From an uncultured archaeon (GTDB lineage: Archaea > Nanobdellota > Nanobdellia > Pacearchaeales > GW2011-AR1): a DNA stretch of 64,000 nucleotides. Each line of letters starts with the position of its first letter. The stretch's first letter is position 1. Made by a program: the position numbers and the translations under genes. The DNA is taken from NCBI GenBank assembly GCA_903866625.1, contig CAIPOI010000008.1, forward strand, positions 2,652 through 66,651, read 5' to 3'. Below are positions 28,625 through 62,593 of this stretch, one piece after another. The notes beneath the pieces were generated by a model. The model ran no database searches. It was given only the letters and a program-made list of their open reading frames with translations, and had not been told where the DNA came from.

Positions 28625-28667
28625 TTTTCTACGTTAATTATATAAACACTTGAATTTTAAGATAGTT

Positions 28668-32900: not shown

Positions 32901-35900
32901 GATCATTGCGAGGGTACTTATTTAACAAGTTGTTCTGGTGGGAATTTTGCTTCTTGTAGTGGTACTTATGCAGGTTCTTATAATAATAATTGTCTGAATA
33001 ATCCTGGCTATTTTATTAGTTGCTCAGGAGATTATTTCACGGGTTGTTCCGGAACTATTTATCTAAATGGCGATAGTGGTTGTAGTAGTAGTCCGAATAA
33101 TTGCGAGGATGGTACTTCTTGTATTTCCTACAGTGATTCTACTATTTGCACTAATGGTGCTGAAGGAAGTGCTTGTAATTCCAATGGTGTTTGTACTTCA
33201 GGTTATTGTTCTGCACCTATCGGTATATGTACTAATGGCTCAGTTAATTCTGGTTGTATTGATAGTTCTAGTTGTGTAGGAGGTTTATGCGCTTCTAATA
33301 ATAAATGTGGCGGTTTGGTTGGTGATAGTTGTGAAACTGTTAGCTGTCAAACTGGATATTACTGCGGTATTTATACTTGTACAACAGGAGAAACAGGTTC
33401 AGAATGTAATGATAATGGTGATTGTATTTCTCAGAGCTGTAGTGATGGTTATTGTATTTCTCCAGATCCTGCTTTAATTGCGAAATACAGTTTTGAAAAT
33501 AATGCTGATGATAGTTCTGGAAATAATAATAATGGTATTTGGGGCGGTGTACAAAGTAGTATAGCTTATACAACAGGAGTTTCTGGTCAAGCTGCAAGTT
33601 TTAATTCAGAAACTTATGTTAATGCTTCAATAACAGGTATACCTACTGGGTCTCAACCTAGAACTTATGCTTTCTGGATTAACTATGCTCAGGATGAAAA
33701 TACAATTATGTTTTCTCAGGGTACTACTTCTTCTAATGATGCTTTCTATATGTTTAGATATGGTCCTAATAATGGAGATATTTCTGGAAAAATGGTAGTT
33801 GGTATTTGGGGTTCTGGTAGTTATAATGGCGTCTCTTTATCAACAGTTTCTACAAATGAATGGCATCATGTTGTAGTTTCTTATAATGGGACCTATGTTG
33901 ACTTTTATTTAGATGATGTTTTACAAAGTTCGCAAGCAGCAACTTATAGTACAAGTTCTGGAAATTTATTCATTGGTAAGTTTGATCCAGAACAATATAA
34001 TAGTTATTTGTTTGTAGGCGCTATGGATGAGTTCCAAGTTTATAATTATGCTTTGAGCTCTAGCGATGTAACAACACTATATAATTCTTATAGCTCAACT
34101 CCTGCTTTAATAGCAGAATATGATTTTGAAAATAATGCAAATGATGCTCTTGGTGTGAATAATGGAACATGGGCTGGAGAAGGAAATCTTAATCAATATG
34201 CTGCAGGAGTTTCTGGGCAAGCCGCTTATTTTGATGGAGCGAGTTATATTACTACTCCTTTAACTATCTCAAGTATTCCTTTAACAGTTTCTGGTTGGTT
34301 CTATATAACTTCAACAGAACCTGGAAATCAATGGCTTCTTGGAGCTGATGATGGTAATGGTAATACTGTTGGAGTGGACCTTTGGTATAATCAATTCCAA
34401 AACTTTTATGGAACTGGTTATGAAAATACTGGAGTTTATATTACTCCTAATACTTGGACTTATCTAACCTATACGATTAATTCCAGTGAGTCTAAACTTT
34501 ATGTTGATGGACAACTAGCTTATACTGGTTCTGCTGGAGAGTCACCAAGTTCAACTGCTGTAACTATTGGTGCAAATGGAAATGCGGCTTCAAAAGTTAA
34601 TGGTTATATTGATGAATACAAAGTTTATAACTATGTTTTAACTGCTGAGGAAATAAATACGTCATTTAATTCACTTGCAGTTTTGGGATGTATGAATTCA
34701 AGTGCTATAAACTATAATCCTTCTGCAAATATAGATGACTCAAGCTGCACTGGAAGAATTGGAGATAGTTGTGATCCTAGTAGTGATCCAAGTACTCAAT
34801 GCGTTTCTGGTTATTGTAGCGGTTCTTCTTTCGTTTGTTCTAGCGGAGAAATTGGAGTTTCATGCGATGATATTTATAATCAGGCTTGGCAATGTTCTTC
34901 AAGTCGTTGTGTAGATGGTTATTGTGCTGCAGCTTTGGCAGGTCATGGAGAATCTTGTGCTTTAATTGAGTGTTCACAATCTCCAGATGGTCAGATTTGT
35001 AATACTTATGATTATACTTGTACTTGGGGACAGATTGGAGAACCTTGTAATACGGGTGATGAGTGTCCTTATGCAAGTAACATTTGTGGAAGTAATAATC
35101 TTTGCGGGGCTAATAATGGAGATTTATGTAGCGGTGGTGAACCTTGTCAGTCTAGTTATTGTTTGGATGATTCTCTTGCAGGTTACACTGGTTCTGGTGC
35201 TATTTGTTCAGATAAATCTATTGGTTCGCCTTGTTCGACTACTAATCAAGCAACAGAATGTAGTAGTGGTTATTGTTCTGGAGAGCCAGGAGTTTGTTCA
35301 TTAAAATCTAATGGTGTTCCTTGTTCAGCTGATGGAGAATGTAGTTCTGGAGTTTGTGGAACTAATAATTTGTGTGGAATTACGCTTGGAACTACTTGCG
35401 ATGATAATTCAAAATGTCAATCAGGTTATTGTGGTTATGGTGATGGAAGAGTTTGTACTACTGGAGAAAATGGTCAGGGATGTACATCTGGAGGAAATGA
35501 TCAATGTATTTCTGGGATTTGTAATGAACTTTATTATGATAACTTTTTCTGTGTAGGCAGTGATGGTCAAGATTGTACTATAAATGAGTATAGTGGTTTA
35601 GGTTATTGTAATTCTACTTATTGTGGTTCTGATTCAAAATGTACTGATAAACAGATTGGTTCACATTGTGGGAATGCAACAGATTGTGATTCTCAAATTT
35701 GTATCTCTAATATTTGTGCTTCAGATACAATTTATCCTCAAGTAAGCTTTGCAACAGGAACTCCCGATGACGCTTCATCTCAATCGAGAACAAGCATTTA
35801 TGCAGATGTAAATGTAGTAGAAGATAATTTTGCTAACTTAACAATTTATTTATATAATACTAGCTTAGTAAGTTCTCAAACTTTTACAAATTCAGTTAGA

Positions 35901-39385: not shown

Positions 39386-40402
39386 ATGATTAATTCACCA
39401 AAACGAGACGAACAGAAATCAGTAGTAGAAGATAAAGCATTTAATAATAAAATTAAAACTTGCTCTGATAAGATTCTTCTTTTAAAAAAGGAGATGAGTA
39501 AGGCTGTTGTTGGTCAAGAAACTATCATAAATGCGCTGATAAGGGCTTTAATCTGTAATGGACATGTTTTAGTAGAAGGAGTTCCAGGAGTTGCTAAAAC
39601 TTTTGTTATAAAGTGCCTTGGAACTGTTTCTGGTTGCGAGGTTAAAAGGGTTCAGTTTACAGTAGATTTGTTACCTACCGATATAACGGGTCAAACTATC
39701 TATCATCAGGGAAAGGGCTTTGAGTTAGTTAAGGGACCTGTTTTCGCAAATTTTCTTATTGCAGATGAAATAAACCGATCTCCACCAAAAACTCAATCGG
39801 CCTTACTAGAAGCGATGCAAGAAAAACAGGTAACTGTTGGAAAAGAGACTTTAGATCTACCAAAACCTTTTTTTGTTATGGCTACCCAAAATCCTTTAGA
39901 ACAAGCAGGAGTTTATACTTTACCCGAAGCACAAGTAGATAGATTTATTTTTAAATTAATTATGGGTTATCCTACTAAGGAACAAGAGAGAACTATTCTT
40001 AGGCAGAATACTGATTTAAGCAGTTTTGATAATTTTGATTTAAAAAAAATAGTTTCTCCTAAGGATATTCTTGAAATGCAAGAACTTGTAAAAAAAGTTT
40101 ATATCAGCAAAGAAATTGAGGAGTATATTATTAATATTGTTGCTCTAACCCGTAGTAAACAAGGAAGATTAGCAAAATATATTGATTGGGGTGCCTCTCC
40201 AAGGGCGAGTATAAGTTTATTTAGTGCCGCAAGAGCAGAGGCTTTTATGAACTCAAGAAGTTTTGTTATTCCGCAAGATGTTAAAAAAGTTGCACATGAT
40301 GTTTTGAGACATAGAATTTTGCTTAACTATGAAGCAGAAGCAGATAATATAACCTCTGATGCCCTTATAGAAGAGATACTAAATGAAATCCAAGTACCAT
40401 AA
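39386..40402 (+). CDS. moxR: MoxR-family AAA+ ATPase
   Basis: GHVLVEGVPGVAKT (Walker A), FLIADEINRSPPKTQSALLEAMQE (Walker B / sensor), VMATQNPLEQAGVYTLPEAQVDRF. Confidence 0.92.
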   Translation: MINSPKRDEQKSVVEDKAFNNKIKTCSDKILLLKKEMSKAVVGQETIINALIRALICNGHVLVEGVPGVAKTFVIKCLGTVSGCEVKRVQFTVDLLPTDITGQTIYHQGKGFELVKGPVFANFLIADEINRSPPKTQSALLEAMQEKQVTVGKETLDLPKPFFVMATQNPLEQAGVYTLPEAQVDRFIFKLIMGYPTKEQERTILRQNTDLSSFDNFDLKKIVSPKDILEMQELVKKVYISKEIEEYIINIVALTRSKQGRLAKYIDWGASPRASISLFSAARAEAFMNSRSFVIPQDVKKVAHDVLRHRILLNYEAEADNITSDALIEEILNEIQVP

Positions 40403-40407
40403 TTCCT

Positions 40408-41310
40408 ATGAAAAATCTGAATGTAGATTTTCCTAGAGCAGTAACCCATTTTGAGGCTGCAATGAAATCTCAACTTCTTATAAAAACTGTTTTCTATAAG
40501 AGAATATTTGGTGGCAAGGGTTTTGAATTTGATTCTTATAGGATGTATTCTCCTGAGAATGATGATGCTGGATTAATAGACTGGAAAGCAAGTATGAGAA
40601 ACCCCGCTAAAACTTTGGTGAGACAGTATGTTGAAGAAAGAGATCTTAGAATATTTTTAGTAGTAGATGTGGGTGATAATATGATCTTTGGTTCTGGCAA
40701 CAAATTAAAGAACGAAGTCGCTGCAGAAATAACTGCGGCTTTATGTCATTTGGTATTAAGCTCGGGAGATAGTATTGGTGTGGTTTTATATAGTGATAAA
40801 CTCGTTAAAATTATTCCTCCTTCGGGAGGTATGGCTCAATTTCATGCAATTGTAAAGGCACTTAAAAATCCTAATAACTATGGCGGTAAATCTGATATGA
40901 AACGAGTTCTAAAATATTTATTACCCAGTTTAAAAAATATTTCTGCAGTTTTTATTTTATCAGATTTTCTTAATTTAGATGATGAAACTCTAAAAACTAT
41001 CAAAACTTTTTCAAGTATTTATGAAACTGCGGGCATAATGCTTAGAGATAGAGTAGATTCTTCCCTCCCAAATATTAAGAATGAAGTAATTGTAGAAGAT
41101 ATTTATACTGGCCAGCAAAAAATTATAAATCCCTCTTTAATCCGCGAACAATATCAAGCTTATTCTAATGAGCAGAAAAACAGGATTATTAATGTTTTTA
41201 AGAAGACTGGCTCCGATATCTTAGATTTATCTACAGATGAAGATTTTGCTATAAGTCTTTCAAAATTCCTTAAAAATAGAGCTAAAAAAAGAAAATTTCG
41301 CAACAACTAA
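40408..41310 (+). CDS. DUF58-domain protein (MoxR partner)
   Basis: YRMYSPENDDAGLIDWKASMR is the DUF58 signature, followed by a VWA-like fold (FLVVDVGDNM). Lies 5 nt after moxR. Confidence 0.85.
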   Translation: MKNLNVDFPRAVTHFEAAMKSQLLIKTVFYKRIFGGKGFEFDSYRMYSPENDDAGLIDWKASMRNPAKTLVRQYVEERDLRIFLVVDVGDNMIFGSGNKLKNEVAAEITAALCHLVLSSGDSIGVVLYSDKLVKIIPPSGGMAQFHAIVKALKNPNNYGGKSDMKRVLKYLLPSLKNISAVFILSDFLNLDDETLKTIKTFSSIYETAGIMLRDRVDSSLPNIKNEVIVEDIYTGQQKIINPSLIREQYQAYSNEQKNRIINVFKKTGSDILDLSTDEDFAISLSKFLKNRAKKRKFRNN

Positions 41311-41397
41311 TGTTGTTTTAGCAAGAATCTTTAAGGAAGAAGAATTAAAAAGAGAGGATAACTGATAATATTAAGGTAATAAAATAAAAGAGGAAAA

Positions 41398-42321
41398 ATG
41401 TTTATTATATTTACTAGGCCGATGTATTTGTTTTTTATTTTAGTCATACCTCTGATAATCTTTTTTCATATAATCTCAATTACACTTTCAAAAAGAAAAG
41501 CTATTAAGTTTGCTAATTTTGATGCTATATCTCGAGTTCAGGGTTCAGATGTTTTCTCGAAAAATTTAACTTTACTCTATATTCACTTAGCTGTTGTGCT
41601 TTTAATTGTTTTATCAGTTTCTGGTACAAGTCTTGTTGCTTCTGTTGAAGCTACAGATCAATCTTTTGTTTTGGCTATAGATGCTTCAAGAAGTATGTCT
41701 GCAACAGATATTGCTCCTACTCGAATGGAAGTTGCCAAGGTTGCAGCAAAAGACTTTCTTAAAATGATGCCCCCACAAACAAGAATAGGAGTCTTATCTT
41801 TCTCAGGTACAACTTATATCGAGCAAGATATGACTAATGATGAATATTTAGTAAGGTCTGCAATTGAAAATATAAATATAAAAAACGTGGGCGGTACAGA
41901 TTTTTTGAGTATGTTCGCAGCGGCAACAAACATGCTTAGAGATGAAGAAACAAAAAATGTTATTTTAATAAGTGATGGTTCTGCTAATCTAAATGATATT
42001 CAAACCATTAATGATTATTTACAAAAGAATAGGGTTGTTGTTTATTCTTTAGGCGTAGGAACCTCTGAGGGCGGAAGTGATAGTTCTGGTGGAGAATTTA
42101 AGCTTTCAGAGGATACACTTAATATAATTTCGGAAAATAGCGGTGGTAAGTATTATAACATCAATAACTTGGAGGATTTTTATTCTTCTTTTAACGAAAT
42201 TCTTAGTCTATCTAAGAAGAATATAGTCTTTGATTTGTCGCTTTATCTAATGATTGGCGCATTATTACTTTTTGTTATAGAATTCATACTGATGAACACA
42301 AGATTTAGAACTCTGCCTTAA
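41398..42321 (+). CDS. von Willebrand factor A domain membrane protein (BatA-like)
   Basis: N-terminal TM helices, MIDAS-type FVLAIDASRSMSATD, ILISDGSAN, C-terminal TM helix. Confidence 0.85.
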   Translation: MFIIFTRPMYLFFILVIPLIIFFHIISITLSKRKAIKFANFDAISRVQGSDVFSKNLTLLYIHLAVVLLIVLSVSGTSLVASVEATDQSFVLAIDASRSMSATDIAPTRMEVAKVAAKDFLKMMPPQTRIGVLSFSGTTYIEQDMTNDEYLVRSAIENINIKNVGGTDFLSMFAAATNMLRDEETKNVILISDGSANLNDIQTINDYLQKNRVVVYSLGVGTSEGGSDSSGGEFKLSEDTLNIISENSGGKYYNINNLEDFYSSFNEILSLSKKNIVFDLSLYLMIGALLLFVIEFILMNTRFRTLP

Positions 42322-51210: not shown

Positions 51211-51218
51211 TTTAAATA
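51211..51218 (+). promoter_or_regulatory. TATA-like box upstream of the second giant gene
   Basis: TTTAAATA. The 29-nt rule places transcription start near 51240, giving a ~17-nt leader to ATG 51257, or a leaderless TTG at 51239. Confidence 0.4.
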
Positions 51219-51256: not shown

Positions 51257-54200
51257 ATGGTTTATAAGAGGTATATAAAAAGAGGGGGGAAGGTTTTTGG
51301 ACCGTATTATTATGAAAGTCATAGAAATTCTAATGGTAATGTAACTACAAGTTATGTTAAATCTAAACCTAAAAATAATTCGATTAATTCTTTGTTAATG
51401 TTTGTTTTAGTGGGGCTTATTTTATTTGGAATATTTTATTATTTTGAAAATTCTTCGAATATTAACTCTAATTTATCTAATTTCAAACCATTATTACACT
51501 ACAGTTTTACAGGTAATGTAATCGATGAAGGTGGTTCAGATTCTTCTCCATCTAGTTCTGAAGCGTCTTCTACTTCTGATTCTTCTACTGCCTCCACTTC
51601 TTCTACTTCTTCATCAGATTCCAGTCCTTCTTCTGATAGTTCTTCTATTTCTACGGAAACTCAAACAACCGAAGCGACTCCTGAAGCTATAACTGAAGCT
51701 TCTACTGAGACTCAAATTTCTGAACAAATAACAGAAACAAGTTCACCTGACTCGGGTTCTTCTGATAGTTCCGGAGCTGAAACAACAATAAATTCTGAAT
51801 ATAATGAAACTACTCCTATTGAAATTACTCAAAATGATTCTATTAACGAAAACAATCAAACGATAAATGAAACTTTAGAATTTGTAAATTCTACATTAAT
51901 CAACGAAACTTTTACAAATGAAACTCTAATTAATAATACTTCACTAGATGAAACTCTAATCAATCAGACCTTAACGAATCAAACTTGGAATAATGAAACT
52001 CTAATCAATGAGACTTTTTATTCTGCTAATTTAACAATTCAAACTAAACAGTATCAGGCGGTTATTAATCGACCGGTTAAATGGATTAAAATTATTAATG
52101 TGACTAATGAATCTGCGATTGATGAGATTCTTTCTGAAGTTCGCAATATTTCTATTGATTTGCCTAAAGAGGCAACAGAAATCCAAATAAAAACAGGTTC
52201 CGACATAGAACAAAGTCTTAGTAATGCTGAAAATTATGCAGAAGAATTTAATCAATCTGTTAGCAAGGAAGATATTGCTCCTGGAAGTATGACTGGATTA
52301 GTTATAAGTGAATCTAATAATTTTGGGATTATCACCCGAGTCTATAACTGGTTATTAGGTCTTTTTAAGAGCAGTCAGATTACTGGCAATGTAGTTGAAG
52401 ATCAAGGTTCTTTTGAAGTTCAAGATCAATTAATTGAAACTTCAGATTCAAAATCCTTGGATGTAGCTCCTTTAGTTCAAGAAATTGTTAATAATATTTC
52501 GGATAACAACTCTATAGCTATAGAGTATACTACTCCGGCTCCAATTGCCGAAGAAAATTTAACTTCGCAAGGAAAACAGATAACCATTTTATCAGAAAGC
52601 GAATATAATTATACCGAAATTTTAGCTTATACTTTAATTGATGATGTTACTGGAATGCAAAATATTCCTATTAATGATACTTCTAAAATAAAACTATACT
52701 GGTATGCTAGTACGGAAGATGCTAAAAAATATGGTTACTCTGAAAAATCTATAGAAGCTTCGGAAGAGTTTAAGATAGAAACTCTTCAGATAAACACTTC
52801 CAAATCTGATGAAGAAATTAATTCAAATCAAGAAGTTTTACCAAAATTTGAAGATAATACTAGCAATAATTCTGAGCAGATAATAAATTCAACAATAGAT
52901 AATGTTGCATCCGAACCAGCAACTTTAACTGCAGAAACTCAAACAACAGAAACAACTCAAGAAACCCCTACTGAAGATGTCGCAAATTCGGAAATAGCTA
53001 TTACAGGAAATGTTGTTGCATCTAATGAAGAGCCAGGAATGATTACTAAATTAGTGGGGGGTATTATGGGAATTACTGGAAATGTTATTGAAACCTCAGA
53101 AGATAATTTAAAAAACAACTCTAATAGTGAAGCTACTTCAGAAACTTTGGAAACTTCAAATCAAAATAATCTGATAAAAGTAGAAGTTAGTTATAATGCT
53201 TATGATTTAGATGGGGATGGTTTTGTAGATTATATTGAATGGGTAGTTCCGCATCTTTCTACTCAAACTTATCAGCTTATTTTAATTACTAAAGCAGAGC
53301 ATTTAGATTCTAATAGAAATTCTATTGAGGACATTTATAATTTTGTTAAATCTTTGGATAGTTCACTATTTGCTGTTCCTAACGGGGATTATATCAGAGC
53401 CAAATTTGAGAAAAATTTAACCATTGGAAAAGATATGACTCTTTATGCAAATGGGAGCGGGGTTGTAAGAGTTTACAATGAAAATAAAAATGATTCTATC
53501 GGAGAATTTTTAATTAATTCTGAAAATATTTCTGAATACAAAATTTATCCTAACTATACTTCTTCAGATACTTATGATCTTGGGTTTATGGGTAATATAA
53601 GCGTAGACTATATTGTTGACCCTCTAACCTGTCCAGATGCTGGTGGAAATTGGGTAGTATCTAATAATTATGTTCTTAGTACTTCTGTAAACTGTTCTAC
53701 TATAACTATTGGTAACGGAGTTACTTTAATAATTAATAGCACTGCTGCGGGAAATCAGTCCGTGAATTTAAGTGCCTTTAACATTACTATTTCTGCTGGT
53801 GGAATTATTAATGGTAACGGAACAGGATACTTGGGGGGTTTAACCGGAAATCCCGGCACAGCAGGATTTGGTCCTGGCGGCGGTGGTTATGGTACTTATG
53901 GTGGTGGCGGTGCAAGCCATGCTTCTGCCGGAGGTGCAGGTTCAAATGGTGCCGCAAATCTTACTATTTATGATTCTGTAACACAACCTATTATGCCAGG
54001 TTCTGGTGGCGGAGGAATTTATACTGGTAGGGGTACTAGTGGTAATGGGGGTAGTGCAATTTATCTCTATCTTTATGATACTCTTGTTAATAATGGAAGT
54101 ATTTTTGTAGATGGTACTAGTGGAAATAGCGGAACTACTACTTATTCCGGTGGCGGCGGTGGTTCTGGTGGAAGTATTTTTATTAATGCTTCTCAAGTAA

Positions 54201-57200
54201 ATGGTATTGGTATACTTTCAGCTGCAGGTGGAACAGGCGGAGCTACTACTCGATCTTCTTCTGGCGGCGGTGGTGGTGGTTCTGGTGGAATAATAAGTCT
54301 TATTGCTCGAGATTATGATAGTTATGCGGGTAGTTTGATAGTTTCATCGGGATCTGGATATTCTGGAACTGTTGCAGGCTCAGTTTATAGACCTGCATCA
54401 TCAACTCTAGGGAATGTGATAATTCCTTCAGGTCAAACTACTACTTGGACTCTTGGAAATTTTACTTTTAATAATTTTACTTTAGAATCCGGTGCTACTT
54501 TGCTTGTTGTAAATGCTGCTAGCCCCTCAAATTGTTTTGGTGGAATTGGTGGAGGTTCCGGTCCTGGAGTTTCTTCAAGTGGTTCTGGTGCGGGTGGTGG
54601 AGCAGGACATGGAGCTAATGGTGGAGCAGGAAGTTCTGCGGGTGGAACAGGCGGAGCTAGTTATGATAATTCTACCTGGCCTTCTATTATCGGTTCTGGC
54701 GGCGGTGGCGGAAGTTCAACCACTACCGCTATGCCTACTGGAGGTTTTGGGGGAGGACAGATTTATCTTAATGTTGTTAATACTGCTAATATAAATGGAA
54801 CTCTTTCAGCTGATGGAACCAATGCACTCACTGGAAGCAATGGTGGCGGCGGTGGTGGTTCTGGTGGAAGTATTTTGTTGAACTCTTCTAATTTTATTGG
54901 TAGTGGAACAATAACTGCGAAAGGTGGAAATGGAAGTTTATATGCAGGTAATACTGGCGGCGGTGGCGGAGCTGGAGGAAGATTAGGTATTTTCTTTACA
55001 ACAAGCCAGTATACTGGAACTTTAACTACTGCTAATGTTGCAGGAGGTAGTGTTAATCATACGAGTGCGGTTGCAGGAGGAACAGGAACTTTATCCATAT
55101 CTGATTTTATAGCCCCAACAATAGTTTATGATGGAACTTCTGAAAATACTAGTACTACTTTAACTGCAAGAAATAACATTTTTGTTAGTGCAACAGCTTC
55201 AGATGATATTAGTCTTGCTTCAATTAATATTACATTATACAATTCTCAAGGTTTGACTAATTATTCTGTGCAAACTTATGTAACTAATGCTACAAATACC
55301 TATACTTATAACTTTACTAATCTTGTTGATGGAGTTTATTCCTTTAATGCTACTGCCAAAGATAGCACTGGAAATTCTAATTCTTCAGGTTCAAGAACAG
55401 TAACTATTGATTATTTATCTCCTAACGCAGATTATTCTACTGGAACTGAGATTGCTTCATCTTATCTGCCAAGAAATTATGCCTTCGTTAATGTTAGCTC
55501 AACCGCTCCTGATGTTCAGAATGTTACAATTAATTTGTATAATACTAGTTTAGTTAATTCAACTCTTATTACTTCTGCTCCTTATCAACTTAATTTTACT
55601 AATCTTGCCGACGGAATTTATTATTTTAATGCTACTCTTAAGGATCCTACTCATTCAAATTCAACGACAACTAGGACGGTAACTATTGATACTATAAGTC
55701 CTCAACTAACTTTTGCTTATCCTGTTTCAGGAACAACTTATGAAGTTGATGTTACTAACTTTAGTTATAATTATATCGAAGCAAATCCTGCTTCTTGCTG
55801 GTATTCCTTGAATGGGGGAACAACTAATACTACAATTACCTGCGGCAATAATGTTACGGGTTTAACTGCTTCTTCGGGAAGCAATAGTTGGAATTTATGG
55901 ATGAATGATAGTGCGGGACATCTTACTAATAGTGCACTAACTTTTACTAAAAATATTTCAAGAATTAGTTTTTGCAGAACTCTTAGTGATTCTGGGGCTT
56001 ATACTGTTTTGAATAATATTAGTAGTGTTTCTGGTAACTGCTTAACGGTCAATTCTAATAATGTTATTATTGAGGGTAATGGATTTACTTTTAGTGGAGA
56101 TAGGGTAGGAGATGATTATGGAGTCTATATTAATGGCAGAAGCAATGTAACCGTTCAAAATTTTGGAAACATAACAAATTTTGCCAAGGGTGTTGGAGTT
56201 ATTTCCTCAAGCAATTGCTTAGTAAAAAATCTTTCTATAAGTTCTTCTACAGATCATGGTATCTATGTTCAGTGGGCTTCTACTAATACTTTTAGAGATT
56301 TAATATTAAATGGAAATGCTGGTGCTGGAATTTATGTAAACTTTTATGCAACTCTAAACAATTTGATTAATGTAACTGCCCAAGGCAATAGTGGAAATGG
56401 AATAGGGATAAATGATAATTCTAACAATAACACTTTAACTAATTGTACTGTTAGTGGGAATTCCCAAAGTGGTGTTGCTATATTGACCTCTGTAGGAAAT
56501 ACGTCTATAAATAATCTTTATTCCTCAAGCAATCTTGGAAGTGAAATTTATGATAATTCTGGGAACTCTAAGATTAATTATCTAAGATATGAAAATCAAT
56601 ATGGGAAGATTGAATGGACTAACACTAGTGATGGGAACTTTTTAAAAAATTTGGGTGTTGAAGGTTCGCTTATTCTTGGGCAAACCTTGAATATCACTCA
56701 GTCTTTTATAGCTTTAGCTACAAGCTCATTTAGCTCTAGTAATATTAGTTCTTCGGCTAATATAACCCTCTACGGAGTTAATACTAGTACTATAAGGCCT
56801 GTAGTTTATAGAAATTCTAGTGCTTTATGCACCTCGGTTTCTTCTCCAAGTTGTTATAATTTTACTAATCTTAATGTAGCTAATCCTGTGTTTAATATTT
56901 CTAGTTGGAGTAATTACACTATAATTGATTTAGGGAGTAGTTATCTTGGAATTACTATTAATAGTCCTGCAAATACTACTTATACAACTTCTAATATTCT
57001 AGTTAATTTATCTGTTCTAAATTCTTCTTCTACAACTTTTTATAATGGTAGTGCTAATAATACTTATACCACTCCAGCTAGCCATAGTTTCGGACAAGGA
57101 AGCACTAATCTTTTAGTTTATGCTACAGATGGTTACGGAAATTATAATGATGCAAATGTTGTATTTTTTGTGGATTCAATTTTGCCGCAAATAACAATTG

Positions 57201-60200
57201 TTTCTCCTAGCGTTAATAGTTATTATAATTCGCCAACTACTGCAACGATGACTTATGTAGAAACAAATCCTGCTTCTTGCTGGTATTCTTTGAATGGAGG
57301 AATAAATACTAGTTTTGTTTGCAATAATAATATAAGCGGCATGAATCCTGTGGAGGGTTTGAATAGTTTGATAATCTGGATGAACGATACTCTTGGAAAC
57401 AAAAACTCTTCGAGCGTTTCTTTCTATAAAGATACTACTCCTCCCCAAATAACAATTACTCAACCAAGTTCATTAACCTCTACTTCAACTTCTATAAACG
57501 TTGAATTTAGTTCTAGCGATTCTGGAGTTGGTGTTTCATCAAGATGGTTTAATGATGGTGTAAATAATATTTCTTATTCTACTCCTACAACTGCAACTCT
57601 TGGGCAAGGCAATACAACTATTATCCTTTATTCTAATGATAGTCTAAATAATTTAAATTCAACTTCATTAAATGTTTTTGTTGATTCTATAGCTCCTGCT
57701 GTTTCATTTATCTATCCATTAAATGTTTCTAGTTTAACTTCTAATTCTTTTAGTCTTTCTTATAGTGCTTCAGATACTACTCTTGATGATTGCTATTGGA
57801 GTTCTAATAATGGTGCTTCAAATACTACTCTTGCTTCTTGTTCAACAAATATAACTTCTAGTTGGGGTCAGGGTTGGAATAATATTACACTTTATGCTAA
57901 TGATAGTCTTGGAAATATCGGCTCTACAAATGTTGTATTTTTTGTGGATAGTATCTATCCTACTATAACAATCAATAGTCCAAATAATGATAGTGACTTT
58001 GGAACAAATTATTTTGCAGTTAATGTAAGTGCGGTAGATACTAATTTTAATAATATAACTACTAGATTGTATAATTCTTCTTTAAGTCTTATTAATACTA
58101 CTTCTTTAAGTACTACTCCTTTTACAATAAGTTTTGTTAGCCTGGGTGATGGAATTTATTATTTTAATTCAACTGCTTGTGATATTCTAGGAAATTGTAA
58201 TAGTAGTGAAACCCGAAAGTTGTATATTGATAGTGGTTTGCCAACCCTAAGTTTATCTTCACCTTCTGATAATTCTTATCTTAATTATACTAATGTAAAT
58301 TATAGCCTTTCAGTTTCTGATACTACTTCTGGAATTTCAAATTATAGTTTGAATATTTATAATTCAACAAGTCTTGTTAATCAAACAACAAAAACTGTTG
58401 GCTTTAGAACTAATAGTTTAACCGACGGAATAAATGTAACTTTGAATACTGGAAATTATACTTGGTTCTATCAGGCTTATGATTTGGCCGGAAATTCTAA
58501 TCTGAGCACTAATAGAACTGTTATTATTGATATGGTTTTGCCTCAGATTAATATTACATATCCTGTTGAAGGAATGCTTTATGCTTCTAGACCCAATACT
58601 ATAAATTATACTACTTCGGATAATTTTGGAGTTGATAAATGTTGGAATACTTTTGATAGCAGACCTCTTAGCTGTTTAGGTTATGTAACCGGACTTTCAA
58701 ATGTAGTAGCTGAAGGAAGTAATACCTGGAATATTTATACTAAGGATTTGGCGGGAAATCTTAATTCTACTAGTGTAACCTTTTTGGTTGATACTCAAGC
58801 ACCAAGAATCTCTTTTATTGATACAACTACTGCTACTGGAAATTATAGCAATGTTAATTATGTTTATGCTAATTTAACTGCTTCAGATACTCGTTACGCT
58901 AATGCAACAATTTACATTTATACTCCTTCAGAATTATTCTATAATCTTACAAGTACTGAAACTCAATTTAATCTAACTAAATTAATGCTACAAGATGATA
59001 TGTATTATCTTAATGCTAGTGCTTGGGATCTTGGCGGAAATAGTAATTCTACTGAAACTAGAAGAATAATGCTTGATAGAAACTTCCCCCAAATTTCTTT
59101 TGGTGCTGGAATGCTGGATAATGGTTCTTCATTTTCTTCAAATAGCCTTTTCGCAAATATAAGTTTAGATGAACAATTTACAAAAAATATAACTTTTTAT
59201 TTGTTTGAAGAGACTACAAATAGTTTGGTTTCAAGCAAGACTTTCACTAATTCGACTAACTCTACTTATTTTGATACTTCTGAAGATGGGTTGTATGATG
59301 TAGAAGTTATTGCTTATGATTGGGTTGGACATTCAAACTCTACCGGCAATAGAACTTTCTATAAGGATACTATAGGACCGGTTTTTTCAGGATACAAATA
59401 TAACTCTAATTCCAGTTTTGCACAAGTAAACATAACTGCAAGAGATGTTCCTTCAGGAGTTGATAGTGTTTGGGCGGAAATTTTAGATAGTAACAATACT
59501 TCCATTGGAGGTTATGAATTTTCTAGACAGGCTGGAGATTTATACAATGGCAATTATAGCGTAAGCATAACTAATATTACTAATATCGGGGATTATAGAA
59601 TTCAAATCTACGCGAATGATACGGGTAATGCTACTTCTAATTCAAGTTATTATTTTGATATTTATCCAACAACGAGTTTTAGAGTTAATCCTAATGTAAC
59701 TAATTCTAATGTGACATATAACTTTACTTTTTTTGGTTCGGGTAATGATTTGGGCGAGATAAATACTTCTTTAAGTTCTAACTCTACTCTTAAGAATCGT
59801 GAATATGATGTCTCAGTTAATGCTTCTGATAACAGTTCAATTGTATTTTATAATCTTACTCTTGGAATCTCTAGCCCAAATATTAATATCCAACAAATTA
59901 ATAACAGTATTCAGTCTACTCCTTCTTTATATAAGCCTCTTAAAGTTTTAGCAGTAGAATTAAATAATTTAACTCTGGGTAATGGGGCAAGAATAGAGAT
60001 GGATTATTCTGGAAAGTTTGATAGTGGAGATTACCCTATAATTAATGAAAGTCAGTTAACAGTTCATAAATGTTCTTCTTGGAGTATTTCTTCTCAAACC
60101 TGTAGCTCTGACTGGATAGAAGTTAATGGAACTACGATTAATACTCTTGCAAAGAAAATAAGTTTTGATGTATCGGGGTTTTCTGCTTATGAAATTACTG

Positions 60201-62203
60201 AATACCGATGTGGAAATGGTATTTGTGAAACTGCTTATGGAGAAACTACTATTACTTGTTCTTTAGATTGTAGTTCTGAACAGACAAATAACACTACTAC
60301 CCAGAATAATAATGGTGGTGGAGGCGGCGGAGGCGGAGCTCCAAAAATTGATGGTTCAAAAAGTCTTAGTTTGAGTACACTTGAAATATCTGAAGAGTTA
60401 AGAGTACACGACTCCGCAAATAGAAGCATAACTGTTTCCAATCCTCAAACTACTTCTGTAGAAGCTAGTGTTACTCTTGATGGCGAAGCGGCTCTAATTG
60501 CTCAGGTTTATCCTACTAATTTAACTATTCCCCCTCTAAGCACCAGGGCAGTTACACTTATGATTTCTGCAGATAAAGAGGGATTTTATTCTGGGGAGAT
60601 AACTATTAAATCTGCTACGAGTGAACTAAAAGTTCCTGTTAAAATTTTAGTTAGGGGAAATAGTGATAAACTAATGGACTTAAATGTTCAGATTGATAAT
60701 AAGAAAGTTGCAAAGGGTGAAGATTTGGATTTTAGATTAGCGGCATTTAATTTGGGGAAACTTTCAAGATATGATATTAATATTAGATATGAAGTTATAG
60801 GTAGTGATAATAAGACTTATGCTTCTCAACAGGAAGCAATTGCTATAGAAACTTCATTAAATCTTGTTCGAAGTATAGCCATTCCAAGAGATATGCCCCT
60901 TGGATCTTCTTCTTTGGTTGTAACTGCATTTTACGACGAGAATAGTGCTAAATCTGTTTCTTCATTTGAGGTTGTTAAGCCCGAGTTTACAATGAACCTG
61001 CCCGCGATAATAAAAGAAGGACTGCCATTGTTTATGACCGCTATTTTATTAATCTTTTTTGCGGTTGTTGGCTACTATTATTTTACTTTCATGAGAAAAA
61101 AATTGTTTGAAAAGGAGATGGAGGAGATAAAAAAGAAGAGTATATATAAATTCCCTGATTTTGATTTACTTCCAAAATCTCATTTTGCGTATATTGGTTT
61201 AATTGCGGATACAAAAGTAAAGACTTATTTGGATTATACTCAGTTGAATAGACATACACTTATAGCTGGTGGAACTGGAAGCGGTAAAACTATTTCTGGG
61301 ATGGTAATTGCAGAAGAACTATTAAGAAGAGATCAGACTGTAATTGTATTTGATCCGGTTGGACAGTGGAGTGGATTTTTTAATAAAGATGGTGATAAGA
61401 TGATGCTCAGCAAGTTCAGAAAATTCGGCATGAGTTCAGCTAGGTCCTTTGGTGGAAAAGTTATTCAGATAACTAAAGATAGTATGAATCTTGATATTTT
61501 GAAATACATGAATACTGGAAAATTAACTATACTCAGAATGGATGCTTTGAAGCCAAATGAAGCAGATACTTTTATTGAGCAGTGCTTGGAAAAGATTTAC
61601 AGGGCAAATCTGTCTGAAGTTACTAGTTTGAAAAATCTTTTGGTATTAGACGAAGTTCATAGACTGCTTCCTAAATATGGCGGAAGAAAAGCTTATATGA
61701 AACTAGAACAAGCAGTTCGTGAGTTTAGAAAGTGGGGTATTGGACTTTTAATGATTTCACAGGTACTGACTGATTTTAAAGGTGCTATTAGGGGGAATAT
61801 TGGAACAGAAATACAGTTGTTCTCTAGATACGAGGGAGATATTAAAAGAGTTAGAGAAAGACATGGTTCGGATATTAGCAAATTAATACCTAAACTTCCA
61901 ATTGGTATTGGTATGGTTGAGGCTGGAGGATATAATCGTGGTAGTCCTTACTTCGTAGATTTTAGACCTATCTATCACTCTCCTTTGAAATTGACTGATA
62001 AAGAGTTAGCAAGATATGTTGATAAAAAACCTTATTTGAGTGCTATGCCGGCTAAAACTTCTAAGGGTCACGAAGCTAAAAGCGAAGGCAAATCTGAAGA
62101 TAGCAGGGAAGAAGCAAAGGAGGATAAATCAGAAAAGAAACCTGAACATAAGAAAACAGAACATCATCCAACTCCTCATACTTCTCATAAACATAAAAAG
62201 TAA
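51257..62203 (+). CDS. Giant two-pass membrane protein (~3648 aa): extracellular adhesin-like region fused to a C-terminal cytoplasmic HerA/FtsK-type P-loop ATPase
   Basis: Uninterrupted ORF (the track starts it at TTG 51239). ATG 51257 gives MVYKRYIKRGGKVFGPYYYESHRNSNGNVTTSYVKS, colinear with the N-terminus of giant protein 1. Order of elements: TM1, S/T-rich linker, sequon-rich repeats, EF-hand loop, Gly-rich solenoid, PbH1-type beta-helix, many Ig-like modules, poly-Gly, CARDB-like region, TM2, then Walker A/B ATPase. Confidence 0.85.
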   Translation: MVYKRYIKRGGKVFGPYYYESHRNSNGNVTTSYVKSKPKNNSINSLLMFVLVGLILFGIFYYFENSSNINSNLSNFKPLLHYSFTGNVIDEGGSDSSPSSSEASSTSDSSTASTSSTSSSDSSPSSDSSSISTETQTTEATPEAITEASTETQISEQITETSSPDSGSSDSSGAETTINSEYNETTPIEITQNDSINENNQTINETLEFVNSTLINETFTNETLINNTSLDETLINQTLTNQTWNNETLINETFYSANLTIQTKQYQAVINRPVKWIKIINVTNESAIDEILSEVRNISIDLPKEATEIQIKTGSDIEQSLSNAENYAEEFNQSVSKEDIAPGSMTGLVISESNNFGIITRVYNWLLGLFKSSQITGNVVEDQGSFEVQDQLIETSDSKSLDVAPLVQEIVNNISDNNSIAIEYTTPAPIAEENLTSQGKQITILSESEYNYTEILAYTLIDDVTGMQNIPINDTSKIKLYWYASTEDAKKYGYSEKSIEASEEFKIETLQINTSKSDEEINSNQEVLPKFEDNTSNNSEQIINSTIDNVASEPATLTAETQTTETTQETPTEDVANSEIAITGNVVASNEEPGMITKLVGGIMGITGNVIETSEDNLKNNSNSEATSETLETSNQNNLIKVEVSYNAYDLDGDGFVDYIEWVVPHLSTQTYQLILITKAEHLDSNRNSIEDIYNFVKSLDSSLFAVPNGDYIRAKFEKNLTIGKDMTLYANGSGVVRVYNENKNDSIGEFLINSENISEYKIYPNYTSSDTYDLGFMGNISVDYIVDPLTCPDAGGNWVVSNNYVLSTSVNCSTITIGNGVTLIINSTAAGNQSVNLSAFNITISAGGIINGNGTGYLGGLTGNPGTAGFGPGGGGYGTYGGGGASHASAGGAGSNGAANLTIYDSVTQPIMPGSGGGGIYTGRGTSGNGGSAIYLYLYDTLVNNGSIFVDGTSGNSGTTTYSGGGGGSGGSIFINASQVNGIGILSAAGGTGGATTRSSSGGGGGGSGGIISLIARDYDSYAGSLIVSSGSGYSGTVAGSVYRPASSTLGNVIIPSGQTTTWTLGNFTFNNFTLESGATLLVVNAASPSNCFGGIGGGSGPGVSSSGSGAGGGAGHGANGGAGSSAGGTGGASYDNSTWPSIIGSGGGGGSSTTTAMPTGGFGGGQIYLNVVNTANINGTLSADGTNALTGSNGGGGGGSGGSILLNSSNFIGSGTITAKGGNGSLYAGNTGGGGGAGGRLGIFFTTSQYTGTLTTANVAGGSVNHTSAVAGGTGTLSISDFIAPTIVYDGTSENTSTTLTARNNIFVSATASDDISLASINITLYNSQGLTNYSVQTYVTNATNTYTYNFTNLVDGVYSFNATAKDSTGNSNSSGSRTVTIDYLSPNADYSTGTEIASSYLPRNYAFVNVSSTAPDVQNVTINLYNTSLVNSTLITSAPYQLNFTNLADGIYYFNATLKDPTHSNSTTTRTVTIDTISPQLTFAYPVSGTTYEVDVTNFSYNYIEANPASCWYSLNGGTTNTTITCGNNVTGLTASSGSNSWNLWMNDSAGHLTNSALTFTKNISRISFCRTLSDSGAYTVLNNISSVSGNCLTVNSNNVIIEGNGFTFSGDRVGDDYGVYINGRSNVTVQNFGNITNFAKGVGVISSSNCLVKNLSISSSTDHGIYVQWASTNTFRDLILNGNAGAGIYVNFYATLNNLINVTAQGNSGNGIGINDNSNNNTLTNCTVSGNSQSGVAILTSVGNTSINNLYSSSNLGSEIYDNSGNSKINYLRYENQYGKIEWTNTSDGNFLKNLGVEGSLILGQTLNITQSFIALATSSFSSSNISSSANITLYGVNTSTIRPVVYRNSSALCTSVSSPSCYNFTNLNVANPVFNISSWSNYTIIDLGSSYLGITINSPANTTYTTSNILVNLSVLNSSSTTFYNGSANNTYTTPASHSFGQGSTNLLVYATDGYGNYNDANVVFFVDSILPQITIVSPSVNSYYNSPTTATMTYVETNPASCWYSLNGGINTSFVCNNNISGMNPVEGLNSLIIWMNDTLGNKNSSSVSFYKDTTPPQITITQPSSLTSTSTSINVEFSSSDSGVGVSSRWFNDGVNNISYSTPTTATLGQGNTTIILYSNDSLNNLNSTSLNVFVDSIAPAVSFIYPLNVSSLTSNSFSLSYSASDTTLDDCYWSSNNGASNTTLASCSTNITSSWGQGWNNITLYANDSLGNIGSTNVVFFVDSIYPTITINSPNNDSDFGTNYFAVNVSAVDTNFNNITTRLYNSSLSLINTTSLSTTPFTISFVSLGDGIYYFNSTACDILGNCNSSETRKLYIDSGLPTLSLSSPSDNSYLNYTNVNYSLSVSDTTSGISNYSLNIYNSTSLVNQTTKTVGFRTNSLTDGINVTLNTGNYTWFYQAYDLAGNSNLSTNRTVIIDMVLPQINITYPVEGMLYASRPNTINYTTSDNFGVDKCWNTFDSRPLSCLGYVTGLSNVVAEGSNTWNIYTKDLAGNLNSTSVTFLVDTQAPRISFIDTTTATGNYSNVNYVYANLTASDTRYANATIYIYTPSELFYNLTSTETQFNLTKLMLQDDMYYLNASAWDLGGNSNSTETRRIMLDRNFPQISFGAGMLDNGSSFSSNSLFANISLDEQFTKNITFYLFEETTNSLVSSKTFTNSTNSTYFDTSEDGLYDVEVIAYDWVGHSNSTGNRTFYKDTIGPVFSGYKYNSNSSFAQVNITARDVPSGVDSVWAEILDSNNTSIGGYEFSRQAGDLYNGNYSVSITNITNIGDYRIQIYANDTGNATSNSSYYFDIYPTTSFRVNPNVTNSNVTYNFTFFGSGNDLGEINTSLSSNSTLKNREYDVSVNASDNSSIVFYNLTLGISSPNINIQQINNSIQSTPSLYKPLKVLAVELNNLTLGNGARIEMDYSGKFDSGDYPIINESQLTVHKCSSWSISSQTCSSDWIEVNGTTINTLAKKISFDVSGFSAYEITEYRCGNGICETAYGETTITCSLDCSSEQTNNTTTQNNNGGGGGGGGAPKIDGSKSLSLSTLEISEELRVHDSANRSITVSNPQTTSVEASVTLDGEAALIAQVYPTNLTIPPLSTRAVTLMISADKEGFYSGEITIKSATSELKVPVKILVRGNSDKLMDLNVQIDNKKVAKGEDLDFRLAAFNLGKLSRYDINIRYEVIGSDNKTYASQQEAIAIETSLNLVRSIAIPRDMPLGSSSLVVTAFYDENSAKSVSSFEVVKPEFTMNLPAIIKEGLPLFMTAILLIFFAVVGYYYFTFMRKKLFEKEMEEIKKKSIYKFPDFDLLPKSHFAYIGLIADTKVKTYLDYTQLNRHTLIAGGTGSGKTISGMVIAEELLRRDQTVIVFDPVGQWSGFFNKDGDKMMLSKFRKFGMSSARSFGGKVIQITKDSMNLDILKYMNTGKLTILRMDALKPNEADTFIEQCLEKIYRANLSEVTSLKNLLVLDEVHRLLPKYGGRKAYMKLEQAVREFRKWGIGLLMISQVLTDFKGAIRGNIGTEIQLFSRYEGDIKRVRERHGSDISKLIPKLPIGIGMVEAGGYNRGSPYFVDFRPIYHSPLKLTDKELARYVDKKPYLSAMPAKTSKGHEAKSEGKSEDSREEAKEDKSEKKPEHKKTEHHPTPHTSHKHKK
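51383..51448 (+). other. TM helix 1 of giant protein 2
   Basis: INSLLMFVLVGLILFGIFYYF, following the basic segment KSKPKNNS. Confidence 0.7.
51530..51790 (+). repeat. Ser/Thr-rich low-complexity linker (coding)
   Basis: GGSDSSPSSSEASSTSDSSTASTSSTSSSDSSPSSDSSSISTETQTTEATPE...SSPDSGSSDSSGAETT. Confidence 0.85.
51865..52017 (+). repeat. Degenerate tandem repeat rich in N-x-T/S sequons (coding)
   Basis: NETLEFVNSTLINETFTNETLINNTSLDETLINQTLTNQTWNNETLINETF. The DNA unit GAAACTCTAATCAAT recurs. Confidence 0.8.
53630..55110 (+). other. Gly-rich beta-solenoid-like region
   Basis: Periodic segments such as GGGGSGGSIFINAS, GGGGGGSGGIISLIA, GGGGGSGGSILLNSS, GGGGGAGGRLGIFF alternate with short hydrophobic strands. 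Confidence 0.55.
55960..56620 (+). other. Right-handed parallel beta-helix (PbH1/NosD-like) repeats
   Basis: NNVIIEGNGFTFSG, GVYINGRSNVTVQNFGNI, GVGVISSSNCLVKNLSI, HGIYVQWASTNTFRDLIL, AGIYVNFYATLNNLINVTA, NGIGINDNSNNNTLTNCTV, SGVAILTSVGNTSI: a ~22-aa periodicity. Confidence 0.65.
61022..61090 (+). other. TM helix 2 of giant protein 2
   Basis: LPLFMTAILLIFFAVVGYYYFTF, followed immediately by MRKKLFEKEMEEIKKK. The basic residues on the C-terminal side imply a cytoplasmic location for what follows. Confidence 0.7.
61150..62030 (+). other. HerA/FtsK-like (COG0433/DUF87-type) ATPase domain
   Basis: RHTLIAGGTGSGKT (Walker A codons at 61268-61291), VIVFDPVGQW, LLVLDEVHRL (Walker B at 61637-61654), EFRKWGIGLLMISQ (resembles the EGRKFG...SQ motif of HerA-type ATPases), IQLFSRYEGD. 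Confidence 0.7.
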
Positions 62204-62593
62204 TTATCTCCTTAACAAGGATCTTTGCTCAACTAATTCTTTTAAGAAAGCTTCTTTGAAAAGTTTTTCAATAATCTTATAGTTGTGTTCATTGAATTGG
62301 CAGAGAACCCACGCAAATCTATCTACTTTAATCATATCAGTATTTGCTACGTATCTTATTCTTTCTGAATCTGGACTTCCTACCTGAAGCCTTAGATGAT
62401 AGGGTTTTTTGAACTCTCTGAAAAACTTTTCAAGAGTCATATTTTCTTCATCTACTCTTTTTATACTACCTGGCGGGATTATATCAAAAAATCTTGTAGG
62501 ATTTAGCAGTTCTTGAGTAGTATACATTAACTCTAAAAATTTTTTATTTTTTTCTGAGCCAAATCTGTTTAAAGAATATTGCCCTATTTGCAT
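62204..62593 (-). CDS. Hypothetical protein downstream of aIF2-gamma
   Basis: 129-aa ORF lying 2 nt after the aIF2-gamma stop. Its stop codon abuts the stop codon of the convergent giant gene with no spacer. Confidence 0.5.
   Translation of the reverse strand: MQIGQYSLNRFGSEKNKKFLELMYTTQELLNPTRFFDIIPPGSIKRVDEENMTLEKFFREFKKPYHLRLQVGSPDSERIRYVANTDMIKVDRFAWVLCQFNEHNYKIIEKLFKEAFLKELVEQRSLLRR

Follow-up and report, generated by a model that had tools for sequence, protein, structure and literature searches.

What kind of system is encoded when a giant surface adhesin and a cytoplasmic motor ATPase appear in one and the same archaeal gene, and is such a fusion real? The question is raised by a gene at 51257-62203, on the plus strand, of a 64,000-nucleotide stretch from an uncultured archaeon (GenBank assembly GCA_903866625.1, contig CAIPOI010000008.1, positions 2,652 to 66,651 of the forward strand), which is called the window throughout. 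The original prediction, drawn from the letters alone, described one uninterrupted open reading frame (ORF) of about 3650 codons, with a basic N-terminal motif and a hydrophobic helix, a long series of extracellular modules, a second transmembrane (TM) helix and a HerA/FtsK-type ATPase tail, and knew of no described equivalent. The frame is indeed uninterrupted, running from TTG 51239 (3,654 codons) or ATG 51257 (3,648 codons) to TAA 62201-62203, and so long a frame cannot have arisen by chance in DNA of 32% guanine plus cytosine (GC). ATG 51257 is the likely start codon, as far as the sequence indicates, because the relatives and the window's other giant ORF share the leader M-[VA]-[YF]-K-[KR]-Y at the N-terminus. 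The product, 3,648 amino acids (aa) followed by the stop, is a giant surface protein of the SPEARE family, and all features of its gene given below lie on the plus strand.

By sequence and by model, the C-terminal tail is a HerA-clade ATPase of the FtsK-HerA superfamily with its catalytic motifs intact, because of its best matches in Pfam, in a profile search of the PDB, in Foldseek and in NCBIfam. The P-loop domain occupies 61184-61981, with Walker A (GGTGSGKT, 61268-61291), Walker B (LLVLDEVH, 61637-61660) and an Arg-finger/sensor-Gln motif of the form R-K-x-G-h5-S-Q, EFRKWGIGLLMISQ (61721-61762), all three of which were confirmed at these positions. Across 30 aligned members the key residues are invariant (G-x-x-G-x-GK of Walker A, D-E of Walker B, and F-R-x-W-G...S-Q), as are 47 further positions; from general knowledge of the superfamily, we take the R of the last motif to be the Arg finger and its Q to be the sensor. 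In Pfam, the last ~370 residues matched PF01935 (DUF87, the HerA central domain) with 52.9 bits against a cut-off of 23.2, and PF05872 (HerA_C) with 42.6 bits against 22. PF02534 (T4SS-DNA_transf, 27.8 bits, cut-off 20.1) and PF10412 (TrwB_AAD_bind, 26.5 bits, cut-off 20.5) were also matched, both within ~40-50 residues of the P-loop neighbourhood (~96-152 of the tail query), and ResIII was above its cut-off over the generic helicase core; FtsK_SpoIIIE (PF01580) stayed below its cut-off, at 16.1 bits against 24. A profile of 18 family members, run against all PDB sequences, found only HerA-type proteins for the ATPase part (YjgR, 1.3e-10; SIR2-associated HerA, 9e-10; S. solfataricus HerA, 3e-9), plus two marginal matches (E=0.0013) on an ectodomain module. 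Foldseek gave the same picture for the ATPase part of the structure model described below, with the HerA entries 4d2i (7e-14), 9x1m (HerA-NurA), 8sub and 8woc (both SIR2-HerA), 8xau and 8xav, and with no VirB4, TrwB or FtsK entry within the top 50. The best NCBIfam matches were CedD (44.9 bits against 600, E=6e-12), HerA (NF040937, 36 bits against 800; NF040819, 23.6 against 970), TraD models (17-27 bits against 366-648) and CedB (26.1 bits against 700), all far below cut-off, with VirB4 (TIGR00929) at 14.5 bits against 643. The HerA/FtsK-type assignment of the tail is therefore upheld, and its PDB matches are to HerA-type hexameric translocases.

We modelled aa 3027-3598 as a monomer with AlphaFold2 (AF2) from a 30-sequence alignment (mean predicted local distance difference test (pLDDT) 84.7, predicted TM-score (pTM) 0.57). 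The model contains, in order, two beta-sandwiches (model residues 11-107 and 114-214, block-mean pLDDT 75-93), one 45-residue helix (aa 3250-3294) and a RecA-like alpha/beta domain. The helix takes in both TM2 (LPLFMTAILLIFFAVVGYYYFTF, aa 3255-3278, 61019-61090; confirmed as originally read at 61022-61090), whose mean Kyte-Doolittle value is 2.22, and the basic juxtamembrane segment MRKKLFEKEMEEIKKK (61091-61138), which continues from it on the cytoplasmic side with a net charge of +4. A hydropathy scan of the whole protein detected two clear TM helices and one segment barely above the cut-off within an Ig-like module. The net charge is +8 ahead of TM1 and +4 after TM2, and 165 N-x-S/T sequons fall in the ~3,190 aa between the helices (5.2 per 100 aa, 1.85 times the expectation from composition) versus 3 in the cytoplasmic parts, so that the adhesin-type modules outside are heavily N-glycosylatable. 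A topology with both termini inside and a huge external loop fits these charges, the sequon split and the single modelled helix across TM2, so that the predicted orientation agrees with the one first proposed.

The supposed uniqueness of the protein has to be given up. The SPEARE passages of Hamm 2019 (PMC6642349) describe 'SPEARE' proteins of Nanohaloarchaeota that are 655-8,553 aa long and mostly extracytoplasmic, and whose single TM, close to the C-terminus, leads into a conserved cytoplasmic part; the examples are NAR1_1133 of Ca. Nanohaloarchaeum antarcticus (5,998 aa) and the proteins of Ca. Nanopetramus SG9 (655-8,553 aa), and SPEARE-like sequences are already noted there for Woesearchaeota, Aenigmarchaeota, Micrarchaeota and Altiarchaeales. 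According to the same passages, SPEARE is expressed in culture, with 81 ectodomain peptides in fractions >315 kDa. The corresponding passages of Reva 2023 (PMC10266531) re-describe the plan as signal peptide, Ig-rich ectodomain, TM, cytosolic VirB4/TraG-like ATPase and coiled coil, also cover SVXNc_0300 (9,409 aa) and BNXNv_0298 (8,880 aa) of cultivated nanohaloarchaea, report a second VirB4/TraG ATPase gene directly downstream in those genomes and propose a secretion 'straw'. In a BLASTP comparison of the window core with the last 643 residues of SPEARE from Ca. Nha. antarcticus, as printed, 33% of 559 aligned columns were identical (E=9e-91), and the alignment extends from the Ig-like domains through the TM helix into the ATPase. 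On this direct core homology, the window protein is a bona fide SPEARE member from a different DPANN lineage. The DPANN origin, suspected from the start, is plausible because the best matches come from Woese-, Pace- and Nanoarchaeota and the window encodes an archaeal aIF2-gamma. We hold family identity and topology, taken jointly, with high confidence.

Like the published SPEARE proteins, the window protein combines a huge adhesin-type ectodomain, a TM near the C-terminus, a cytoplasmic P-loop domain, a poly-Gly hinge and a Gly-rich solenoid; unlike them, it has a basic leader and TM1 in place of a plain signal peptide, no detected laminin-G, and a basic low-complexity tail instead of a C-terminal coiled coil. 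The match of its Gly-rich solenoid to the SPEARE Gly-rich region (E=2e-4) is weak and prone to composition effects, and was not relied on as evidence of homology. At least one laminin-G domain per ectodomain is stated in the SPEARE passages of Hamm (PMC6642349), descriptively, and no segment of the window protein matched Laminin_G at E<=0.01; Laminin_G_3 is present in a relative (P0123), and we treat laminin-G as part of the variable region rather than as defining. SVXNc_0300 and BNXNv_0298, as described in PMC10266531, share with the window protein the signal sequence, Ig-rich ectodomain, TM, cytosolic FtsK/HerA-superfamily ATPase and predicted topology, but carry ~75 Ig domains, WD40-like propellers, a terminal coiled coil and a downstream VirB4/TraG-family ATPase gene, whereas the window gene has no such partners and its ATPase classes with HerA, not VirB4/TraG. 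Two earlier identifications of the SPEARE tail were set aside: the 'type III restriction enzyme' of the first SPEARE paper is ruled out by the HerA-clade matches in sequence and structure, and the later, specifically VirB4/TraG assignment meets only the sub-threshold NCBIfam score, the P-loop-only Pfam matches and the lack of such entries in the Foldseek top 50.

Because the architecture recurs collinearly in many independent assemblies, the adhesin-ATPase fusion is judged genuine, and a chimeric join is, from the sequence comparisons, very unlikely. A search with the tail returned 307 homologous proteins, mostly from Pace-, Woese-, Nano- and Aenigmarchaeota, and a scan of species-representative genomes yielded 467 confirmed relatives. 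When the frame was extended upstream at 70 loci, 52 ORFs reached at least 1,000 aa and 32 at least 2,000 aa; at 23 of the 70 loci the frame was still open past >3,000 aa at the start of the locus DNA, so that these lengths are lower bounds, set in most by the 10-kb flank limit. A HMMER scan of 1.84 billion cluster representatives (clusters at 50% identity) gave 331 representatives at E<=1e-30. Of 137 newly retrieved representatives, 108 reach a length of 1,000 aa or more and 30 one of 3,000 aa or more, the longest having 7,665 aa; the 150 matches listed stop no more than a few hundred residues short of the C-terminus, the exception being a soluble form. The closest relatives, with 58-69% identity in the tail, are P0121 (2,138 aa), P0123 (3,543 aa, from an NCBI metagenome-assembled genome), P0127 (3,256 aa), P0129 (1,942 aa) and P0131 (2,103 aa), and all five have the leader, TM1, TM2 and the basic tail. 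The C-terminal core is collinear in 10/10 compared relatives: in seven of them over the last 950-1,580 residues, starting at about aa 2,060-2,660, and in the other three from about aa 3,020. The junction at 60.9-61.2 kb, where a misassembly would have to lie, is inside a block (Ig-like, Ig-like, TM, ATPase) that aligns undisrupted across dozens of independent assemblies.

The distal ectodomain, by comparison, is a shuffled set of modules across relatives, and ectodomains of ~250 to >7,000 aa sit on the constant core. Complete short homologues (~500-730 aa) consist of a signal peptide or leader, two Ig-like domains, a TM, a basic stretch and the ATPase. What evolution has conserved is the machine formed by the core, with its two Ig-like domains, TM and ATPase, to which individual lineages have added a giant ectodomain that serves reach and binding. 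Reduced forms were also seen, namely a minimal TM+ATPase protein of 402 aa (L064, 1363-2571) and the soluble form (L008, 8700-11816; also P0134), in which the ATPase is N-terminal and a 650-aa C-terminal extension follows; a further short form, in L006, proved to be an artefact of a forced ATG start. One giant gene, otherwise collinear, has a single in-frame stop within the conserved second Ig-like domain (L049, ~8533), which could be a pseudogene, a sequencing error or a site of read-through.

The modules of the window ectodomain follow this scheme, with a distal tip that is variable and a base that, by sequence, appears conserved. After TM1 comes an S/T-rich linker (aa 70-179, 51464-51793; >50% Ser+Thr in 60-aa windows), and further on a canonical EF-hand-type Ca-binding loop, DLDGDGFVDYIE (aa 650-661, 53204-53239), around which aa 644-802 are 41-47% identical to P0127 and P0129. 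A Gly-rich, solenoid-like region (aa 816-1286, 53702-55114; 25-45% Gly) leads to a first Ig-like block of two supported modules (aa 1283-1380 and 1381-1473, 55103-55675; internal BLAST E=1.6e-11 and 1.7e-17), which have VTID..SP end motifs and match Big_13 weakly. A right-handed beta-helix of PbH1 type (aa 1599-1753, 56051-56515) matched Pfam PF13229 Beta_helix with E=5.7e-14 and 52.5 bits (cut-off 25.9). The second Ig-like block (aa 1894-2699, 56936-59353) holds ~8 modules ending x-[IV]-D-[ST]-x-x-P, as seen by internal BLAST and by a motif spacing of 87-100 aa. The base begins with a Cys-rich knob, YRCGNGICETAYGETTITCSLDC, and a poly-Gly hinge (60203-60334), an element also present in P0022, P0113 and Aenigmarchaeota members; poly-G occurs in the printed SPEARE sequence as well. 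It is completed by the two membrane-proximal beta-sandwich (Ig-like) domains (60365-60976), the ectodomain part of the family core by AF2 model and conservation, which are kept in most of the 30 aligned members and in SPEARE and which Foldseek matched to tandem beta-sandwich proteins. Nine ~90-aa Ig-like modules are backed by internal BLAST (E<=1.3e-4), so that, with the membrane-proximal two of the AF2 model, the 'more than 10 Ig-like modules' originally counted is a fair figure. The rest of the original module list (S/T linker, sequons, EF-hand, Gly-rich zone, beta-helix) also stands, except that its CARDB-like region gave no CARDB HMM match: it consists of the two beta-sandwich domains, and the likeness to CARDB holds at the level of fold only.

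At the other end, the protein opens with a basic, cytoplasmic leader (MVYKRYIKRGGKVFGPYYYES...TSYVKS, 51257-51379, net charge +8), of which the 41 residues KRYIKRGGKVFGPYYYES...TSYV precede TM1, a signal-anchor helix (aa 42-63, 51380-51448; Kyte-Doolittle 19-residue mean 2.38), as the original prediction had it. The leader follows the consensus M-x-[YF]-K-[KR]-Y-x-K-x-G-K-x-[FY]-G-P-Y-x-Y-x-[ST]...G-K-V-x-T-x-Y-[VL]-G and is kept in the close relatives P0007, P0121, P0123, P0127, P0129 and P0131; it occurs in 9 of the 137 retrieved representatives, 5 of those 9 being among the 16 closest, which were inspected. It matched no family in Pfam or NCBIfam, and it also heads giant proteins without the ATPase, namely the window ORF 29961-37097 and L005 11168-15928. 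Judged by these occurrences, it looks like a lineage-specific leader that serves large surface proteins. The second giant gene of the window (29961-37097, plus strand, ~2,380 aa) starts with the leader KKYSVKNGKKYGPYLYH...TSYVG and a TM; Laminin_G_3 matches it in two stretches (family E=1.3e-36), its C-terminus is dockerin-like, and an ATPase is lacking. The ORF 28650-29780, on its 5' side, likewise carries Laminin_G_3. No second paralogue of the SPEARE core was found within the window. A short motif, [I/L/M/F]-T-G-N-V-[I/V], recurs in both giants, often right after a mildly hydrophobic stretch (aa 84, 375, 582 and 606 of the first, at nt ~51506, 52379, 53000 and 53072; aa 280, 568 and 595 of the second), and may be left over from fused leaders, or else mark where the proteins are processed or modified.

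The window protein belongs to a Woese/Nanoarchaeota-type subfamily, which is set apart by the 'GKxFGPYYY' leader with TM1, by a basic disordered tail, and by the lack of both a C-terminal coiled coil and a partner gene. In most other clades a coiled coil follows the ATPase, in the place taken here by the Lys/Glu/His-rich low-complexity C-terminal tail (62024-62200), to which similar basic tails in P0123-P0129 correspond. Moreover, 54 of the 70 related loci have a gene for a coiled-coil protein (347-600 aa) ~48 nt downstream on the same strand, for example L042 11601-12920 and L077 6384-7427; against Pfam this partner matched no family, giving only sub-threshold coiled-coil noise, and the SPEARE passages of PMC6642349 and PMC10266531 make no mention of it. 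In the window, tblastn found no such gene. The closest relatives (L001-L008 and L081) also lack coiled coil and partner and have a Lys/His-rich disordered tail; hence the terminal coiled coil and the downstream VirB4/TraG-like ATPase gene are features of subfamilies.

Several characterized systems resemble parts of this architecture. Canonical HerA (4d2i, 9x1m) and YjgR/DUF853, the best matches, share the RecA-like core, Walker A and B and the Arg-finger/sensor-Gln motif, whereas the window protein has neither the HAS barrel nor a NurA partner and is membrane-anchored and fused to an ectodomain. The type IV coupling proteins TrwB, VirD4 and TraD, and TraB of Streptomyces, run from an inside N-terminus through a TM, an external loop and a second TM to a cytoplasmic hexameric ATPase of the FtsK/HerA superfamily that moves DNA between cells. 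From such general knowledge they are a topological analogy to the window protein; as tested by HMM scores, the matches are restricted to the P-loop, and their external loop has a few dozen residues against 3,190 here. DNA import in Sulfolobales has been shown by experiment to depend on CedB and CedD, two HerA-clade ATPases anchored in the membrane (PMC11868833). They share with the window protein the TM-anchored HerA-clade ATPase, acting at cell-cell contacts, and CedD is the top partial NCBIfam match of the tail; they differ in having a VirB4-like N-terminal domain, no ectodomain, and CedA/CedE channel proteins and pili, none of which lie beside the window gene. The Ced ATPases would be the best analogue of how the window protein works.

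What would such a protein do? The reading that we judge probable is that of a SPEARE member whose hexameric HerA-clade motor threads a polymer at contact with the host. The ATPase would probably assemble, by analogy with its relatives, as a hexameric ring beneath the membrane and bundle six stalks; the rigid TM-juxtamembrane helix would couple the ring to the six-fold stalk array, the variable distal modules would bind the partner cell, and the ATP-driven ring would thread the polymer where the stalk grips that cell. That the polymer translocated would be DNA is a more tentative proposal, argued by analogy; DNA is favoured because the domain is of the HerA clade, because CedB and CedD, which among its characterized relatives with a membrane anchor are the nearest, are required for DNA import, and because the tail of this subfamily is strongly basic. 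The coupling and translocation role first suggested for the window protein would be essentially that of the published proposals. A bolder version, which we consider unlikely, is that the SPEARE core would be a self-sufficient transmembrane polymer pump made of a single polypeptide and confined to DPANN and a few further archaeal groups, comparable to a minimal conjugation or Ced machine but with no need of a VirB6/CedA channel. In the window's subfamily, leader and TM1 would complete a 12-helix pore per hexamer, and the 3,190-aa loop would keep the host in place during the uptake of host DNA or nucleotide polymers. If true, such a pump would be the main route of nucleic-acid acquisition of biosynthetically deficient DPANN cells.

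Several observations weigh against a polymer-threading motor. Six TM helices per hexamer, or twelve if TM1 stays, form no obvious DNA channel, and no VirB6/CedA-like channel, pilin, NurA-like nuclease or second ATPase adjoins the giant gene. The HAS barrel of canonical HerA is absent, as the helix of the AF2 model passes from the TM straight into the ATPase; every curated NCBIfam equivalog scored far under its cut-off; a pTM of 0.57 makes the relative arrangement of the modelled domains uncertain; and the topology is a prediction from hydropathy, charge and sequons. The SPEARE passages of PMC6642349 report TM and cytoplasmic peptides only in smaller size fractions than ectodomain peptides; the mature protein may thus undergo cleavage, and direct mechanical coupling would then be less credible. 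The published proposals, as given in these passages and in those of PMC10266531, also disagree with each other, one being DNA uptake and degradation and the other effector secretion.

The second of these proposals is an injector resembling a type IV secretion system (T4SS), the 'straw' of Reva 2023, in which the stalk binds the host and a VirB4/VirD4-like ATPase exports proteins into it. It is the published reading of the homologous SVXNc_0300 and BNXNv_0298, which in the SPEARE passages of PMC10266531 have a VirB4/TraG-family ATPase gene next to them; T4SS-DNA_transf and TrwB_AAD_bind do score above cut-off on the P-loop region, and with TM1 kept the topology mimics that of type IV coupling proteins. 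However, those two matches span only ~40-50 residues at Walker A, the window protein has no VirB4 N-terminal domain, and neither the NCBIfam VirB4 score nor the Foldseek top 50, free of VirB4 and TrwB structures, points that way. No second ATPase or VirB6-like gene flanks the window gene or its closest relatives, the downstream partner at the 54 loci is the coiled-coil protein without Pfam family and not VirB4, and a beta-helix with Ig modules makes no conduit; the HerA-clade identity of the ATPase favours nucleic-acid translocation over effector secretion, and we regard the injector as improbable for this protein. To an ATP-regulated adhesin we assign a similarly small likelihood. Here the ring would act on the protein itself, through nucleotide-dependent clustering, stiffening, assembly, tensioning or turnover of the six stalks, and would so control attachment from inside out. 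The rigid continuous helix that, in the model, joins TM2 to the ATPase is consistent with this, as are the conserved Ig-like pair directly above the membrane in most aligned members, the free length of the ectodomain on a constant core, and the coiled coil and coiled-coil partner gene of most clades, which are typical scaffold elements. Such a role is without precedent in the FtsK-HerA superfamily, though, whose characterized members move nucleic acids or secretion substrates, and the existence of adhesin-free minimal (L064) and soluble (L008) forms implies that the ATPase has a job independent of the stalk.

Two other explanations carry little weight beside the polymer-threading motor. HerA ATPases also serve in antiviral defence, as in SIR2-HerA and DUF4297-HerA, and the ectodomain might then be a surface sensor or decoy; PADLOC matched mad8 (2e-14) and several HerA models (6e-14 and weaker), and defence-system HerA complexes are among the structural neighbours. 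These PADLOC matches cover the generic HerA ATPase core and include generic helicase models, no SIR2, nuclease or other effector is fused or adjacent, the gene sits among housekeeping genes and not in a defence island, and known defence HerAs are soluble. Since the matches are to HerA-type or generic helicase models without an effector partner, we rejected this highly improbable reading. It is harder still to credit an assembly or annotation artefact, in which an adhesin gene was frameshifted or chimerically joined to a separate TM-ATPase gene. Giant repetitive genes are error-prone in metagenome assemblies, and the L049 relative does have its in-frame stop in a conserved module. Yet the junction block gives a gap-free alignment with relatives from many independent projects and with the SPEARE of a cultured organism, the core is collinear with all ten compared relatives, base composition is even along the gene, most loci (52/70) and representatives (108/137) have at least 1,000 aa, and nearly all matches listed place the ATPase close to the C-terminus.

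The surroundings of the gene are archaeal and chromosomal: the window (GC ~32%, even in composition) contains aIF2-gamma, gyrase A/B, a MoxR/DUF58/VWA operon and an intron-containing tRNA. A candidate archaeal TATA-like box, TTTAAATA (51211-51218), was noticed by eye ~40 nt 5' of the ATG. The flanking genes encode gyrase A, a YdjM-like membrane protein, the products of two unannotated small ORFs and aIF2-gamma, and no relaxase or T4SS genes were found near the giant gene. On its 3' side lie a convergent 129-aa ORF (62204-62593, minus strand, no family match) and aIF2-gamma; the TAA of the giant gene abuts the stop of this ORF (62201-62206) with zero intergenic bases. The small ORF has no homology to a similarly placed one in L081, and thus the window's subfamily has no conserved small partner. 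An operon of Bat/MoxR-VWA type (39386-42321, plus strand) lies just 3' of the second giant gene and encodes a MoxR-type AAA_3 ATPase, a DUF58 protein and a VWA/BatA-like protein; it perhaps extends to 44997, the next two ORFs being unannotated. A tRNA match of 138 nt (17070-17207, plus strand) is presumably the intron-containing archaeal tRNA, and two further tRNAs lie at 6793-6863 and 16880-16952.

The window adds no new kind of system; it adds subfamily variation and points of comparison. Fusion of a surface protein to the ATPase is the norm, in at least 331 clusters with most members >1,000 aa. The downstream coiled-coil partner of most clades had gone unremarked, to judge from the SPEARE passages of the two papers, and the window's subfamily, which has lost this partner, instead has a distinctive leader that further giant surface proteins encoded by that genome also carry. 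In many DPANN genomes no genes stand out more, or cost the cell more, than those for SPEARE-type proteins, which are prime candidates for the device by which DPANN cells attach to and exploit their hosts.

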